Assembly (NCBI GenBank): GCA_963836205.1
Contig: CAWIIV010000014.1
Location: 128,001-192,000, forward strand
DNA from: an uncultured Acidimicrobiia bacterium
GTDB lineage: Bacteria; Actinomycetota; Acidimicrobiia; Acidimicrobiales; AC-14
DNA length: 64,000 nucleotides
Direction of reading: 5' to 3'
Shown: piece after piece, positions 44,614 to 47,949 of the stretch
Numbering within the stretch: the first letter of the stretch is position 1
Layout: each line of letters opens with the position of its first letter
The notes under the pieces: model-generated
The model's database searches: none
Seen by the model: only the letters and a program-made list of their open reading frames with translations
Told to the model about the DNA's origin: nothing
Translations under genes and position numbers: made by a program

Positions 44614-45090
44614 TCACGGGTGCTCCGTGGGGCGGCCGGCGAGGAGCTCGAGGGCGTGGGGCAGGACGTCGAGGACGGCCTCGAGGGTCTCCACCGACCC
44701 GGCCGTCGACCCCGGGGTGTTGAGGACGATGGCGGTGCCGACGGTGCCCGCCGCGGCCCGGGACAGGCGGCCCTTGTCGGGGTTGGTCGCCCGCATGGCC
44801 TCGGCCAGGCCGGGGGCGTGGCGGTCGAGGACGGCGACGGTGCCCTCGGGCGTGAGGTCGCGGGGTCCGAAGCCGGTGCCGCCGGTAGTAACCACCAGCC
44901 CCGCGAACCCGGCGGTGAGGCGGCGGAGGGCGTCGGCCACCGAATCGGTGCCGTCGGCCACGACCTCGTGGCTGACCACGTCGTAGCCGGCGGCCGTCAG
45001 CCGCTCGACCAGGGCCGCGCCCGACTTGTCCTGCCGGGTGCCGCCGACCACGCCGTCGGAGACGGTCAGCACCTTGGCCTGGAGGGTCAT
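44614..45090 (-). CDS. MogA/MoaB molybdenum cofactor biosynthesis protein
   Basis: LTVSD..DKSG, TTGGTGFGPRDLTPE, NTPGS. Confidence 0.92.
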   Translation of the reverse strand: MTLQAKVLTVSDGVVGGTRQDKSGAALVERLTAAGYDVVSHEVVADGTDSVADALRRLTAGFAGLVVTTGGTGFGPRDLTPEGTVAVLDRHAPGLAEAMRATNPDKGRLSRAAAGTVGTAIVLNTPGSTAGSVETLEAVLDVLPHALELLAGRPTEHP

Positions 45091-47027
45091 TGGTTGTCAG
45101 GGGCGCGCCGCTCGCTGACGAGCACGTTTCCCCCTCCCCCTTTCGATTCCGTGCGTGCGGTTTTCCCGCACACGGCTCACCGATGGTCTTCTGGACATGG
45201 TTACGCAGCCTTCGGGTAACGGATGGTGCCCATGAGCTGGTGCAGGCCCTGGTCGTGGAACCAGGCGTGCGTCCAACGCTCGGCCTGGCCGGCTCGCAGG
45301 TTGCGGCCCCGCTTCTTGATCAAGAGGCGCTTGAGCCGCCACACGACGTGCCGGTCGAGGGAGACGAACTTGTCGGCCGCGTTCCCGGTGCGGAAGTAGT
45401 TGCCCCATCCCCGAAGGAACAGGTTGAGGTCGTCGATCACGTCCTCCAACTCCAAACCGAGCCGGCTCCGACCGGTGAGGGCCTTGATTCGCAGTCGTGC
45501 CCGCTTCATGGACCGCTGTGACGGCCACCGGTGCAGGTAGTAGCGGACGATGCGCCGCTGCTCCCACAGGCGACCCGACATGCGGGCGTGAAGGTGACAG
45601 CCCAGGAAGTCGAAGCCCTCCTTGCCCTCCCGAAGATCGACCACGCGGGTCTTGTCCGGGTGCAGGCTCAGACCGAGGTCGCCCAACATGGCGGCTGCCC
45701 GCAATTGAGCTTCATCGGCTTGTTCCCGGGTCGTGCACAACACCACGAAGTCGTCCGCGTAGCGGACGAGCTCGCCGGTGCCGGACTCGGCCCAGGACCG
45801 GTCGAAGGCGTGCAGGTAGACGTTGGCCAGCAGCGGGGAGATGACCCCGCCCTGGGGCGTGCCCGTGACCGTCTCGGAGCGCACCCCCTCGACCAGCACC
45901 CCTGCACGCAGCCACTGGCGGATGAGCTTGAGCACCCGCCGGTCCGAGACGCGCCGTTCGACCTCGACCAGGAGGCGGTCGTGGTCGATCTGGCCGAAGA
46001 AGTCGCGGATGTCGGCCTCGAAGACGAACTGCCGTCCTCGGGGGAACGCCACCCGGATGGCTTCCAGGGCGTCGGTGGCCGAGCGCTTCGGTCGGAAACC
46101 GAAGCTGGTCGGCAGGAAGTCGGCCTCGAAGATGGGCTCGAGGACGATCTTGGCTGCCGCCTGGCACACCCGGTCGCGCACGGTGGGGATGCCCAGGGGC
46201 CGCATCCGGCCGTCGGGCTTGGGGATCTCCACCCGGCGCACAGGTGCCGGGCGGTAGTTGCCTGCACGGAGGTCACGGGAAAGCTCGTCGAGCATGCGCC
46301 CGACCCCGTAGTCCTCCACCGCCTCCAGGGTCAGACGATCGACCCCGGCGGCGCCACGATTGGCTCGGACCCGCCTCCACGCCTCCCACAGGACGTCACT
46401 CCGGTGGATGCGGTCGTACAGGGCGTGGAAGCGGCGACCCGGAGACTGCTTGGCCGCAGCCCATAGCCGGTTCTGGAGTTTTCGCACGTTGTCGACGGGC
46501 GTCTGCCCGGCGGGGGATTTGGACCGGGCGGTCCCGGCCATGCCCTTGTGCTTACCCCCATCGTCGGCGTGACCAAAGTCGGGGCCCTTCCCGCCGGCTG
46601 GCGGTACTACGACCCCGTCGGACTCCCGCTGCGCTCCGCTCGATTTCACCACTGGCTTATACGAGCGGTCTTTGCTGACGAGGCTGCGCAGACGGGTCTC
46701 TCCCCTTCCGAACCTGACCTTGCGTACGTGCCGCTCCCCATACCCCGGGGGGACCCGACCAGGGGCATTCCGGAACGCCAGTCGGTCGGACGTGGGCCTT
46801 GGCCGTGACATGAGCGGCTCGGCTCCCCCGTTGTACATCTGACGAGGCTGCAGGACTCACGCCTGGTGGCGCTACGGCCCGCACGCTTGCTCCCTCCGAA
46901 GAGGCTCTTGACGCCCCGCTCAGCCCGCCGCCTCTCGGCGACGAACCGGGGCCTGCTACCGGGCTCTCCGGCGATTACCCGGGCGGGACTCACACCCGCT
47001 GGTCTGGTCCAGCTTCGAGGACGCACC
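45089..47027 (-). mobile_element. Group II intron (~1.94 kb) inserted in the mog start codon
   Basis: 5' GTGCG at 47026; domain V GAGCCGTGTGCGGGAAAACCGCACGCACGGAATC; domain VI ending CCCCTGACAACCAAT. Boundary ambiguous by a few nt. Confidence 0.9.
45201..46838 (-). CDS. ltrA: Group II intron reverse transcriptase/maturase, no endonuclease domain (true start probably downstream, ~46541)
   Basis: RPLGIPTVRDR, GTPQGGVISPLLAN, YADD, FDFLG and maturase GWGNYF; ends without an HNH domain. Confidence 0.95.
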   Translation of the reverse strand: MYNGGAEPLMSRPRPTSDRLAFRNAPGRVPPGYGERHVRKVRFGRGETRLRSLVSKDRSYKPVVKSSGAQRESDGVVVPPAGGKGPDFGHADDGGKHKGMAGTARSKSPAGQTPVDNVRKLQNRLWAAAKQSPGRRFHALYDRIHRSDVLWEAWRRVRANRGAAGVDRLTLEAVEDYGVGRMLDELSRDLRAGNYRPAPVRRVEIPKPDGRMRPLGIPTVRDRVCQAAAKIVLEPIFEADFLPTSFGFRPKRSATDALEAIRVAFPRGRQFVFEADIRDFFGQIDHDRLLVEVERRVSDRRVLKLIRQWLRAGVLVEGVRSETVTGTPQGGVISPLLANVYLHAFDRSWAESGTGELVRYADDFVVLCTTREQADEAQLRAAAMLGDLGLSLHPDKTRVVDLREGKEGFDFLGCHLHARMSGRLWEQRRIVRYYLHRWPSQRSMKRARLRIKALTGRSRLGLELEDVIDDLNLFLRGWGNYFRTGNAADKFVSLDRHVVWRLKRLLIKKRGRNLRAGQAERWTHAWFHDQGLHQLMGTIRYPKAA

Positions 47028-47072
47028 ACGGCCCCGATGGTAGGTGCCCGATCGTTTGCGACGGCTCGGCGG

Positions 47073-47949
47073 TCACGTCCCCAGGCGTTCGCCCGGCTGG
47101 AGGCGGGCCCCGTTGCGCCAGGCGGCGGCCGGCTGCGCGCCCTTTCCCTCCGGTCGCACCTCCACCAGGGTGAGCGCCCCTCCCCCGCCGGTGCCCACGT
47201 CGAGGGTGGACGGGTCGAGCTCGCCCGCGGCCAGCCCCCGGCCCTCGACCGCGGCCAACGACGCCCGGGGCACGAGGAGTCGCCTGCCCCGGAACGTCGT
47301 CCACGCCTGGCCCAACCGCACCACCCGGTGAAGGTGCTCGGCCGACCGTGTCCAGTCGAGGTGGTGCTCCTCGGGTTCGATCTTGGCCGCGTAGGTGGTC
47401 TCCCCGACCTGGGGCGTCGGATTCCGGCAGGCCCTCGGCCAGCAGGCGCACGAGCAGTTCCGTCCCCTCGGCCGACAGCGCCGTCCGCAGCTCGTCGAGG
47501 GTGGCGTCGGGGCCGATCGGGTGCTCGACCGACGCGTAGACGGGGCCGGTGTCGAGTCCCTCCTCCAGGGCCATGACGCACACTCCCGTGACGTCGTCGC
47601 CGGCGAGGATGGCTCGCTCCACCGGCGCCGCCCCCCGCCAGCGGGGCAGGAGGGAGAAGTGGAGGTTCACCATGGGCAGGGCGTCGAGGACGTGGGGCTT
47701 GATCAGCCGGCCGTAGGCGACGACCACGCCCAGCTCGGCACCGACGCCGAGCACGTCGTCGACCTTGTCGGTGACGGGCAGGCCGAGCTCGCTGGCGGCC
47801 GCCTTCACCGGGCTGGGCAGCAGGGCACCACCCCGTCCCCGGCGCCGGTCGGGACGGCTCACCACCAGGGCGACGTCGTGGCCCGCGTCGACCAGCGCCC
47901 GTAGCGGGCCCACGGCGACCTCGGGCGTCCCCAGGAACGCCAGCCGCAC
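47073..47949 (-). CDS. fmt: Methionyl-tRNA formyltransferase (1-nt frameshift ~47423)
   Basis: AFLGTPE, NLHFSLLPRWRGAAP and EGLDTGP; TYAAKI continues in the shifted frame. Confidence 0.93.

Follow-up and report, generated by a model that had tools for sequence, protein, structure and literature searches.

Why should a group II intron lie directly behind the start codon of mog, a gene whose transcript probably begins with that very codon? The locus raising this question is on the minus strand of the window (the whole 64,000-nt stretch analysed, within which all positions are counted). The results described below make it likely that the element is an active, mobile group II intron encoding a protein devoid of an endonuclease domain, and that it belongs to a widespread lineage homing to leaderless gene starts.

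Identity of the element

The element is a real group II intron. Its RNA matches Rfam model RF02003 (group-II-D1D4-4) with 91.1 bits, against a gathering score of 49, between positions 47001 and 46867; the match covers model positions 1-138 of 138, aligns fully from intron position 26 and represents the domain I-IV ribozyme core of group II introns. An internal ORF in domain IV (positions 45201-46652, minus strand, delimited from the overlap motif described below) encodes a 483-aa protein with reverse transcriptase (RT; RVT_1, 3.7e-36) and maturase (X) domains (GIIM, 8.7e-16), in which the Pfam search found no endonuclease domain. Folding of a 25-sequence alignment gave domain V (45145-45178, minus strand) ten pairs, three of them with compensatory changes, and gave domain VI (45092-45140, minus strand) a basal helix paired in 25/25 sequences, with 12-13 double changes at inner pairs. 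Domain VI carries a bulged A at position 45094, probably the branch point, followed by the six nucleotides CCAAUG before the 3' splice site. The RT gene starts at intron position 375, and domains I-III occupy only about 375 nt.

The 5' end of the window copy is GUGCG, in agreement with the GUGYG of group II introns; across the 62 introns of the lineage analysed here, 39 begin with GUGCG, 19 with UUGCG and 4 with UCGCG. With the splice site set by EBS3, the 3' end is UG rather than AY, which is obtained only in the alternative register considered below. The terminal UG and a U as the first base (23/62) are unorthodox for group II introns. The solved structures nearest to the window protein are those of IIC reverse transcriptases (6ar1, 211 bits; 7uim, 197 bits), and IIC-like Paenibacillaceae introns, which sit after T-runs, are among its relatives; a quick tree puts them, on a long branch, either within the clade or close to it. 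L069 is a long-branch artefact in this tree because its intron carries an insertion.

Insertion site in mog

As the preliminary description had stated, the upstream junction on the minus strand reads TACCAT, seven nucleotides, GTG and then GTGCGTCC, starting at position 47026, while the downstream junction reads CCCCTGACAACCA, followed by ATG (45090-45088) and ACC-CTC. The ORF that continues from codon 2 (44614-45087, minus strand; the 3' exon) is Mog-like according to Pfam (MoCF_biosynth, 6.1e-26) and its orthologues, and RibD comes next. Excision of 1,939 nt yields TACCAT-N7-GTG-ACC-CTC-CAG, which is, as had been anticipated, the allele type of intron-less genomes of the same genus (G001-G007). 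At all seven of these empty sites the start codon (GTG in six, ATG in one) is directly followed by codon 2 (ACC, AAC, AAA or ATC) and then CTG. The box TACCAT (47042-47037, minus strand), a -10-type sequence that would serve as the mog promoter, is kept as TAC(C/G)AT 6-8 nt upstream of the start in six of the seven, the other having CACGAT. This comparison, proposed earlier as a check, brought no refutation: the allele GCCGTG-CAATGACC, in which the ATG would belong to the host, was absent from all seven same-genus genomes.

The statement that many genes here are leaderless is borne out by 661 TAnnnT-N6/7-RTG sites in the 4.05-Mb genome, 392 of which lead into an in-phase ORF that shows coding periodicity and is 100 codons or more in length. 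A sigma-70 scan of positions 46900-47300 with an E. coli-type consensus returned zero promoters and zero terminators, and none at the mog site. The host GTG (47029-47027) is probably both the transcription start and the entire 5' exon of a leaderless transcript.

The preliminary description had placed the intron inside the start codon, with one of its ends offset by 1 nt. The offset holds and is most likely at the 3' end, but the intron appears to lie directly after the codon, as GUGCG...CCAAUG, because the base that covaries with EBS3 is the one following the terminal ATG (51/53 pairs). The best-supported register, most likely the correct one, is thus 45088-47026 (1,939 nt, minus strand), on the evidence of the Rfam match, the empty alleles, an identical copy and EBS3 covariation. 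Inclusion of the ATG or GTG in the 5' end of the intron is excluded, since identical copies differ there (GTG in L001, ATG in L002 and L008).

The last three nucleotides of the intron (45088-45090, minus strand) are an AUG in phase with mog, so that the intron end rebuilds an in-frame start as had been claimed. Of 55 introns of the lineage, 52 have ATG as their terminal triplet and the other 3 have GTG, and the frame of the terminal ATG has the best downstream coding periodicity in 45/51 cases (P=6e-16) and not in the other six; upstream of the intron the frames show no preference (16/17/18). Members from phyla that use Shine-Dalgarno sequences have AGGA or GGAGG 7 nt upstream of the terminal AUG. 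In keeping with the earlier proposal, the insertion may be host-neutral, with mog translatable from unspliced RNA.

Distribution of the lineage

Eight copies belonging to two subfamilies are present in this genome, seven complete and the eighth cut by a contig end. L002 is identical to the window intron (0 mismatches). The identical pairs of the genome, L001 with L002 and L005 with L006, point to recent mobility. Three copies in the genome have 1-nt frameshifts in the RT gene. All eight copies are preceded by ATG or GTG, seven have TAnnnT 6-8 nt upstream (the box of L002 is TAGCGA), and all seven complete copies terminate with CCAATG. Five of the seven complete copies have entered unrelated Pfam-recognisable genes at codon 1 (Mog, Hist_deacetyl, PIG-L, HIT and CHAT), which ties the copies to start codons rather than scattering them without relation to such codons. 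L002 lies antisense within a GmrSD-like gene. L005 lies in sense orientation within a histidine-kinase gene, yet it still follows TATCGT-N7-GTG, for which the per-site chance is 0.006.

Foreign loci were taken from the best 80 of 591 protein relatives, and 5' ends could be placed in 69 of the 80. When the flanks were tabulated as the preliminary description had suggested, the expected start codon preceded 62 of the 69 foreign introns (ATG or GTG, with one TTG and one ATT), and the expected ATG was found at the end of the introns in the proportion given above; the seven that do not follow a start codon all belong to a sister clade. Relatives in many bacterial phyla share the start-codon placement, and most of the copies in those phyla are at the first codon of Pfam-recognisable genes. 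The set used for further analysis comprised 62 introns (8 from this genome and 54 foreign) picked by NTG or ATT before the 5' end, a feature that is no independent count within the set; the introns are also mutually related, so the counts overstate independence. In this set, TAnnnT occurs 6-8 nt before the start codon in 60/62 introns, compared to 88 of 13,829 other RTG sites at the same loci (0.64%) and 8 of 1,111 CRTG sites in the window. The 5' flanks of the lineage have this -10 box and the start codon but no further conserved position. The seven empty alleles, together with the other copies at start codons, uphold the view of a start-codon-targeting retroelement. Targeting of leaderless starts, which had been put forward as something unusual, draws support from the frequency of the -10 box and from covarying base pairs that reach both the box and the start codon. 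In the literature open to full-text search, no description of group II introns inserted at leaderless starts was found.

Recognition of promoter and start codon

Three loops of the intron covary with its flanks, as expected of the exon-binding sites of group II introns. EBS1, the hairpin loop CAUG at intron positions 215-218 (46809-46812, minus strand), matches IBS1, which consists of the host start codon and the C before it (47027-47030, minus strand), CAU pairing with the start codon; throughout the set, EBS1 pairs with the start codon and preceding base at position -4 in 59/62 and at position -3 in 61/62 introns. EBS2 is GAUG at intron positions 188-191, in the loop GUCA-GAUG-UACAA (46836-46839, minus strand), and its partner IBS2 is CATC, made up of the last three bases of the -10 box and the one that follows (47039-47036, minus strand). 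In the lineage, this pairing, 3-5 bp long, involves box positions 4-6 and the first spacer base in 240/310 cells, whereas 2,000 permutations gave a mean of 171.7 (sd 6.8) and never more than 198; at box position 5, 57/62 introns are paired (MI 0.95). A search for the EBS2 partner anchored at the splice site found none, as such a search is blind to a box whose distance from the codon varies (6, 7 or 8 nt), whereas anchoring on the box found the pairing. EBS3 is the U at intron position 287, in GGGGUA[U]GGGG (46740, minus strand), whose partner is A45087, with which mog codon 2 begins (IBS3); EBS3 and the first base of codon 2 share 1.30 bit of mutual information and pair in 51/53 introns (G:C 20, C:G 14, A:U 13, G:U 3, U:A 1).

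The preliminary description had considered a 5' exon of two or three nucleotides too short for normal EBS1-IBS1 pairing. This difficulty is eased, as the EBS1 of this lineage is only CAUG, the complement of the start codon plus one base. Pairing of the terminal AUG with EBS1 was also considered and rejected: of three introns with a CAC loop, L013 ends in GUG but L012 and L030 end in AUG. Reverse splicing into leaderless mRNA at its 5' end is disfavoured, as the intron covaries with the pre-start base and the -10 box, two elements that precede the presumed transcription start. In open promoter complexes the last T of the -10 box is held by sigma; here this T pairs with an invariant intron A in 61/62 introns, which agrees poorly with the strict version of an attack on the sigma-bound open complex. 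For the first two bases of the box, T (61/62) and A (62/62), no pairing was found that accounts for them. Possibly the particle takes advantage of promoter DNA in the course of opening, or the protein reads the box in a sigma-like manner.

An open frame from the host start codon

A point that is new here is the open frame that runs from the host start codon through domains I-III. In the window copy, the frame opened by the host GTG continues for 127 codons (46646-47029, minus strand) and ends at UGA (46648-46646) within GUGGUGA (46646-46652, minus strand), where the host-phase stop overlaps the GUG-GUG of the RT frame; this overlap is found in 23/62 introns. In 58/62 introns the host-phase frame remains open over 100 or more codons, and in 56/62 it is free of stops over the first 360 nt, a stretch in which frames 0, 1 and 2 contain 13, 153 and 249 stops, respectively. 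In the seven sister-clade introns, stops occur in all three frames. Open frames are common at 71% G+C. The host-phase frame runs directly into the RT ORF in 21/62 introns and stops -1, +6 or +7 nt from an RT-frame ATG or GTG in 31/62; the remaining 10 are outside fusion or tight coupling (five with early stops, three with starts 33 nt further on and two odd cases). Inspection by eye of the window copy revealed no Shine-Dalgarno-like run before the RT start. Because the host-phase frame is open and either fused to the RT or ending at its start, translation of the RT is probably driven from the leaderless start of the host.

Alternative explanations

There are several potential alternatives to this account, concerning the targeting, the register and the translation of the RT. 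It could be argued that there is no special targeting, that any CATG-like site is used, and that only copies at promoters and start codons survive or are seen. RNA pairing on the start-codon side is indeed short (4+1 bp), the genome offers 72,452 CRTG sites, and the invariant TA of the box is unaccounted for by pairing. However, EBS2 covaries with the -10 box itself, none of the eight genome copies is at a box-less site, and the harmful copies L005 and L002 (TAGCGA) still have a matching box; the box at L005, inside a kinase gene, argues for recognition rather than survivorship. We regard the absence of targeting as highly improbable. Somewhat less remote, but still improbable, is a variant in which the targeting is the same and insertion occurs inside the start codon (RU|G), making the intron G-GUGCG...CCAAU with orthodox ends. 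Excision of 45089-47027 leaves an identical empty site, and in this register every intron begins with G and ends with AU, whereas in the preferred one 23/62 begin with U and all end with UG. The variant implies that the partner of EBS3 is the second base of the 3' exon. In known introns EBS3 contacts the first base of the 3' exon, and in this lineage its position covaries only with the base directly after the terminal ATG, the next two giving at most 0.33. In addition, a distance of 6 nt between the bulged A and the intron end, the same spacing as that reported for Pe.th.I2 (PMC3753933), requires that the G be counted as intron. The register that places the intron between codons 1 and 2 accordingly remains the preferred one.

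Of the three alternatives, the one that we take most seriously, although it too is unlikely, accepts the targeting as described but has the RT translated independently from an internal start. The open host-phase frame would then serve otherwise, for example by avoiding early termination, transcript polarity or decay. Several fusion-type introns (L039, L042, L050, L059 and L028) do carry ATG or GTG in frame where the RT normally starts, and tight coupling is absent in the 10/62 introns mentioned above; other fusion-type introns (L044, L054, L018 and L033), however, have no start codon there, the conserved AUAAGCCRAUGGUGAAA puts stops in both non-RT frames at the RT start, and no ribosome-binding sequence is visible ahead of the RT in the window copy. 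We therefore retain translation from the host start as the more probable source of the RT.

A model for the life of the intron

In the model that we propose, the three domain I loops read the DNA target: EBS2 contacts the last three bases of the box and the one behind them, EBS1 the start codon and preceding base, and EBS3 the first base of codon 2, so that the intron lands exactly between codons 1 and 2, here those of mog. The host promoter 7 nt upstream would transcribe the intron, and for that reason the 5' exon of the transcript would be just the start codon. Ribosomes may load on this 5'-terminal codon, traverse domains I-III in the open frame and then either continue into the RT gene or, as would be the case in the window, stop at the UGA of GUGGUGA and restart. 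The RT/maturase would aid splicing, which would restore the native leaderless mog mRNA, and on unspliced RNA the terminal AUG in phase with mog could be a spare start. We infer the transcription start, the splicing and the translation in this model from sequence. Public assembled contigs from RNA libraries X8 and X16 and from two DNA runs match the intron body at 90-99%, and none of these contigs bridges an exon-intron joint or skips the intron.

Taken in full, this amounts to a lineage that parasitises the whole leaderless gene start, to which we give about an even chance: the RT would lack a ribosome-binding site of its own and would be made by ribosomes that enter at the host's 5'-terminal start codon and read through domains I-III, the 5' exon would be only 3 nt long, and an in-phase AUG would be held in reserve. 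If the RT is made in this way, the intron must land one codon behind a promoter.

Comparison with known introns

The introns of class IIC (GsI-IIC, B.h.I1), which insert after transcription terminators, resemble the present lineage in having a protein without an endonuclease domain, a very short EBS1 and a one-base EBS3, and in targeting a gene-expression signal rather than a unique gene sequence. The IIC target, however, is a hairpin, whereas here it is a -10 box and start codon; judged on the conserved 5'-flank positions, insertion at terminator or attC hairpins does not apply to this lineage. IIC introns also lack EBS2, whereas here an EBS2-type pairing is supported beside a 4-nt EBS1 and an EBS3, a departure from the IIC pattern. 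Moreover, unlike IIC introns, this intron lies inside a transcription unit, between codons 1 and 2, and has an RT frame linked to the start codon of the host. The proteins of the yeast mitochondrial IIA introns aI1 and aI2 are read in frame with the upstream exon, and the likeness to the present case is that an intron protein is translated from the start codon of the host gene through intron RNA. Those introns are organellar, with long upstream exons and proteolytic processing of the protein, while here the exon is one codon, the transcript leaderless, and a stop/start overlap takes the place of fusion in many members.

Placement at single codons is also known from the IIB1 start/stop-codon lineage (Michel et al. 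2007), in which a working codon is recreated, as when the groEL UAA becomes UAG on insertion (PMC12584367); the present intron likewise lies next to an initiation codon and supplies an in-phase AUG. According to the same source, domain I of IIB1 members carries 300-700 inserted nucleotides close to its 5' end, which are absent here, the Rfam model being colinear from position 26, and its introduction reports no link to a -10 box or to leaderless genes. In IIE/IIF introns, EBS2-IBS2 is conserved but dispensable for self-splicing, and a role confined to homing has been put forward for it (Nagy et al. 2013, PMC3753933). This logic fits the present lineage, whose IBS2 is upstream of the presumed transcription start; the portion of that paper drawn on here describes no association with start codons or promoters. 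The endonuclease-less varieties F and g1-g4 of Toro and Martinez-Abarca 2013 include, among the entries used here, actinobacterial introns (g1) and a Sorangium intron (g2). L039 of the present set comes from a Sorangium.

Implications

These findings have consequences for annotation, since in mog and dozens of other genes the 'ATG' that is called as the start is intron RNA, and the 'intergenic' DNA ahead of such genes includes an intron of about 2 kb. More broadly, the lineage would add a third specialised group of bacterial group II introns, beside the terminator-seeking IIC and the start/stop-codon IIB1 introns, with a promoter plus start codon as the target, read by RNA pairing through the short and readable code of EBS1, EBS2 and EBS3. 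It would raise the mechanistic question of whether group II splicing can proceed with a 3-nt 5' exon. It would also be a bacterial counterpart of the exon-fused intron proteins of mitochondria, and would show how a retroelement with neither a promoter nor a ribosome-binding site may gain both from one landing site.

The insertion at mog

On the minus strand, the fmt stop codon (positions 47075-47073) is followed after 30 nt by the box TACCAT (47042-47037) and, 7 nt later, by the GTG start codon of the host gene (47029-47027), which runs directly into GTGCGTCC from position 47026. Approximately 1.9 kb past this 5' end, the sequence ...CCCCTGACAACCAATG closes with an ATG (45090-45088), after which ACC CTC CAG continues in the Mog reading frame; mog (MoCF_biosynth) and ribD are the genes downstream. 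The inserted element matches Rfam RF02003, a domain I-IV model, over the whole model length (47001-46867; 91.1 bits versus a gathering score of 49), its ORF contains the Pfam domains RVT_1 and GIIM with nothing after them, and when 25 relatives are aligned, domains V and VI fold with compensatory changes. The preliminary description was correct in every detail at these junctions, including both junction strings, the group II intron identity and the two downstream genes. The upstream fmt gene (48252-47073, minus strand) seems frameshifted, with Formyl_trans_N in one frame (48252-47330) and Formyl_trans_C in another (47324-47073), which may be a sequencing error in the assembly or a real break.

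Using Mog as a query in 30 related genomes, the orthologous locus was obtained in all seven same-genus genomes; none of the conclusions given here depends on the unpublished genomes G008, G009, G015 and G017. In each of the seven, codon 2 (ACC, AAC, AAA or ATC) directly follows the start codon, which is GTG in six genomes and ATG in one, and CTG-CAG/CGG/GAG-GCC/GCG-AAG comes next. TACCAT or TACGAT stands 6-8 nt before the start codon in six of them and CACGAT in the seventh, with the fmt stop a few dozen bases farther upstream. Because these empty sites pass straight from start codon to codon 2, the insertion measures 1,939 nt (preferred ends 47026-45088) and its terminal ATG is not host DNA. 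The allele GCCGTG-CAATGACC, which the preliminary description had set against its own reading, was absent from all seven empty sites examined.

Intron copies across the genome

Eight copies of the intron are present in the genome (4.05 Mb, 25 contigs, 71.4% G+C). Subfamily 1 consists of the window copy (L001), L002 and L008, with no differences between L001 and L002 over 1,939 positions, while subfamily 2 (L003-L007) has approximately 90% identity to subfamily 1 and includes the identical pair L005 and L006. Because identical copies occupy different places, these sequences indicate that the intron has recently been mobile in this genome. A 1-nt indel shortens the RT gene of L003, L004 and L007 to 330, 330 and 112 aa, respectively, versus 489 aa; these may be decaying copies or homopolymer errors of assembly.

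All eight copies are directly preceded by ATG or GTG, and seven have TAnnnT 6-8 nt before that codon (TAGCGA in L002). The seven complete copies all end in GAC(A/T)ACCAATG, L008 being cut by a contig end, and five of the seven occupy codon 1 of genes unrelated to one another (Mog, histone-deacetylase-family, PIG-L deacetylase, HIT and CHAT-domain). Copies are therefore mostly tied to gene starts, and the preliminary description had taken the opposite outcome as counting against its reading. The other two are off-target. L005 (C17) lies in sense orientation inside a histidine-kinase gene (HAMP, HisKA), cutting HATPase_c at profile position 82 of 111, at a site that nonetheless mimics a leaderless start (TATCGT-N7-GTG). 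L002 (L002:1508-3447, C6) lies antisense inside a GmrSD_C-type restriction-endonuclease gene, whose domain is cut at profile position 55; this gene is probably inactivated, since an antisense intron cannot splice from its mRNA.

Relatives in other genomes

A protein search of species-representative genomes found 591 relatives, and the best 80 of the 591 were taken further. The 5' end was placed in 69 of these 80 loci: 54 by profile and pattern, four by eye (L036, L037, L048, L056), four with just 4-6 nt of flank before a contig end (L041, L043, L049, L083) and seven as a distinct group (L068, L070, L074, L077, L078, L079, L081). As expected from the preliminary description, 62 of the 69 have ATG or GTG directly before the 5' end (TTG in one case and ATT in another), and the last intron triplet, which always abuts codon 2, is ATG in 52 of 55 introns and GTG in the other three. 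The seven lacking a start codon at the 5' end all fall in a sister clade of a quick protein tree, where the start-codon clade has an SH-aLRT of 97; 58 of its 68 rows show the habit, and the other 10 have no placed 5' end. According to record titles, mostly of metagenome-assembled genomes, the hosts include Acidimicrobiia, Actinomycetes (Embleya, Pseudonocardia, Mycobacterium simiae), Solirubrobacterales, Chloroflexia, Gemmatimonadales, Acidobacteriota, Nitrospirae, Planctomycetota, Spirochaetia, Myxococcota and Pseudomonadota.

The other 11 of the best 80 loci are truncated or have an unplaced 5' end, and five of them are Paenibacillaceae introns. These five (L080, L082, L084, L087, L088) join the start-codon clade on a long branch of the quick tree; in L084 and L088, the two with a visible 5' end, (G/U)CGCGUGCCC comes straight after a T-run, as in terminator-seeking class C introns. 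Three loci are far longer than the rest (L011, L069 and L083, at 2,789, 3,917 and 4,253 nt) and probably contain a nested insertion, which accounts for the very long branch of the L069 protein. In L010, the 11-base run accgacgagcc is present on both sides of the intron, once approximately 20 nt ahead of the start codon and once immediately past the intron's 3' end.

A leaderless-type target site

Flanks were compared in 62 introns (eight from this genome and 54 from others) chosen by NTG or ATT before the 5' end, a feature therefore not counted within the set. TAnnnT precedes the start codon in 60 of the 62, at 6 nt (37), 7 nt (20) or 8 nt (3), counts that are not independent events since the introns are kin, though all insertion sites differ. 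The misses are L002 (TAGCGA) and L057 (GACAAT), and the box occurs at that spacing in 0.64% of 13,829 other RTG sites in the same loci. The base before the start codon is C in 47 of 62, and the 62 flanks have no conserved position beyond the box, this base and the start codon, and no -35 element. Among the 51 loci with enough downstream sequence, third-position G+C periodicity peaks in the frame of the terminal ATG in 45 (one third expected; P=6e-16), and in 43 this frame runs without a stop for 100 codons or more. The three upstream frames show no such preference (16, 17 and 18), and an in-phase stop occurs within 30 codons in 33 of the 51. From these frame and box counts, most copies lie at real gene starts without room for a leader or Shine-Dalgarno sequence.

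Leaderless-type starts had been described as common in this genome, and the genome-wide count agrees: 392 of 661 TAnnnT-N6/7-RTG sites lead in phase into a coding ORF 100 codons or longer and, judged from sequence, roughly a tenth of its genes therefore look leaderless. Of the 392 sites, 47 fit the code of subfamily 1 (C-RTG-A) and 76 that of subfamily 2 (C-RTG-G). A promoter scan of the mog site with an E. coli-type consensus found no promoter.

Reading of the target by RNA pairing

The 62 introns were aligned over their first 520 nt, and intron positions were screened for pairing with the flanks. EBS1 (46812-46809, minus strand) lies in the hairpin loop U-CAUG-UC, with the start codon and its preceding base as partners. 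Its fourth loop base tracks the flank in 59 of 62 introns (C:G 47, G:U 5, A:U 3, U:A 3, G:C 1), while the third, in the 11 introns that follow GTG, is C in three and leaves a G:U pair in the other eight. EBS3 (46740, in GGGGUA[U]GGGG, minus strand) covaries with the base right after the terminal ATG (mutual information 1.30 bit), pairing in 51 of 53 introns with G:U as well as four Watson-Crick pair types; mutual information with the following two exon bases is 0.33 or less. In known IIB and IIC introns, EBS3 contacts the first base of the 3' exon. Because its partner here follows the terminal ATG, the 3' splice site most likely lies after ...CCAAUG and the intron spans 47026-45088. Given this splice site, the bulged A of domain VI (45094) is 6 nt from the intron end, the same spacing as reported for the IIF intron Pe.th.I2 (PMC3753933).

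EBS2 (46839-46836, minus strand; loop GUCA-GAUG-UACAA) has box positions 4-6 and the first spacer base as partners, and this pairing appears when flanks are anchored on the box, not on the splice site. Box position 6 pairs as T:A in 61 of 62 introns, position 5 pairs in 57 (mutual information 0.95), the first spacer base in 48 and position 4 in 44. In total, 240 of 310 cells are paired, versus 171.7 (sd 6.8; maximum 198) in 2,000 permutations. In the window, CAUC pairs with GAUG (EBS2), CGUG with CAUG (EBS1) and A with U (EBS3). The first intron base (47026) is linked to EBS3 (46740): 19 of 22 introns with C at EBS3 start with U and 36 of the other 40 start with G (Fisher P=2e-9, ignoring relatedness), which may avoid pairing of EBS3 with the intron's own first base, a pairing by which the 5' junction would resemble ligated exons.

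The box could reflect either recognition by the intron or survivorship of the copies found beside it. Recognition is the better explanation because both off-target copies keep a matching box, for which the chance is 0.006 per site. Box bases 1 and 2 are near-invariant (T in 61 and A in 62 of 62), and no pairing partner for them was found in the 62-intron alignment; protein contacts, promoter function or ease of DNA melting are candidate routes to their recognition.

The short 5' exon and the terminal AUG

If transcription begins at the start codon, the 5' exon is 3 nt. EBS1 comprises four bases only, three of them matching the start codon, and the presumed transcript begins downstream of IBS2. 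This parallels IIE and IIF introns, for which PMC3753933 describes EBS2-IBS2 as dispensable for self-splicing and perhaps serving homing only.

In a clade from phyla using Shine-Dalgarno sequences, 11 of 22 members carry AGGA, GAGG or GGAGG at a distance of 7 nt ahead of the terminal AUG, whereas the actinobacterial clade has CCCCUGACUACCAAUG in its place. The 11 members, with the run in the last 26 nt of the intron, are L035, L039, L042, L046, L050, L053, L059, L063, L065, L066 and L085, and the phyla of the clade are Proteobacteria, Planctomycetota, Myxococcota, Acidobacteriota and Spirochaetota. The pattern fits the suggestion in the preliminary description that the terminal AUG may keep the host gene translatable from unspliced RNA, as a spare start codon.

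Comparison with known introns

No account of group II introns at leaderless starts turned up in the literature search. The IIB1 start/stop-codon family (Michel et al. 2007), as summarized in PMC12584367, carries 300-700 nt of extra sequence close to the 5' end of domain I that the present intron lacks, and that summary mentions no link to -10 boxes. By protein sequence, the nearest solved relatives of the RT are class C reverse transcriptases. The present lineage resembles class C introns in its short EBS1, its EBS3 and its use of an expression signal as target, but differs in the target itself, in its EBS2 pairing and in lying inside the gene. The protein may fall in g1 or g2, two of the endonuclease-less varieties outlined in Toro and Martinez-Abarca 2013.

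Proposed translation of the RT from the host start codon

Followed into the intron, the reading frame of the host start codon stays open for 100 codons or more in 58 of the 62 introns, while the other two frames close at medians of 17 and 3 codons. Summed over the first 360 nt, the host phase contains 13 stops (zero in 56 of 62 introns) and the other phases 153 and 249; seven sister-clade introns have stops in every frame. The open frame continues through the RT gene to its stop in 21 of 62 (617-680 codons). In 31 it ends close to an RT-frame ATG or GTG, at -1, +6 or +7 nt, by an (A/G)UGGUGA overlap in 23, UAG-GGC-AUG in five and a UAA 7 nt before the start in three. The window intron belongs to the 23, with GUGGUGA at 46652-46646 leading into an RT ORF of 483 aa (46652-45201, both minus strand). 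The frame ends 33 nt before an ATG in three introns and early in five, and the remaining two are odd (L007 with its frameshifted RT gene and L011 with its insertion).

The main rival to translation of the RT from the host start codon is independent initiation at the internal start. Some fusion-type introns (L044, L054, L018, L033) have no start codon of any kind at the usual RT start. The conserved motif AUAAGCCRAUGGUGAAA places UAA in one frame and UGA in another and leaves AUG-GUG open in the RT frame; with stops in both other frames, a ribosome therefore ends up at the RT start whichever phase it arrives in. Ribosomes starting at the host start codon are proposed to translate the RT, and such dependence on the host start would explain why these introns land one codon behind a promoter.
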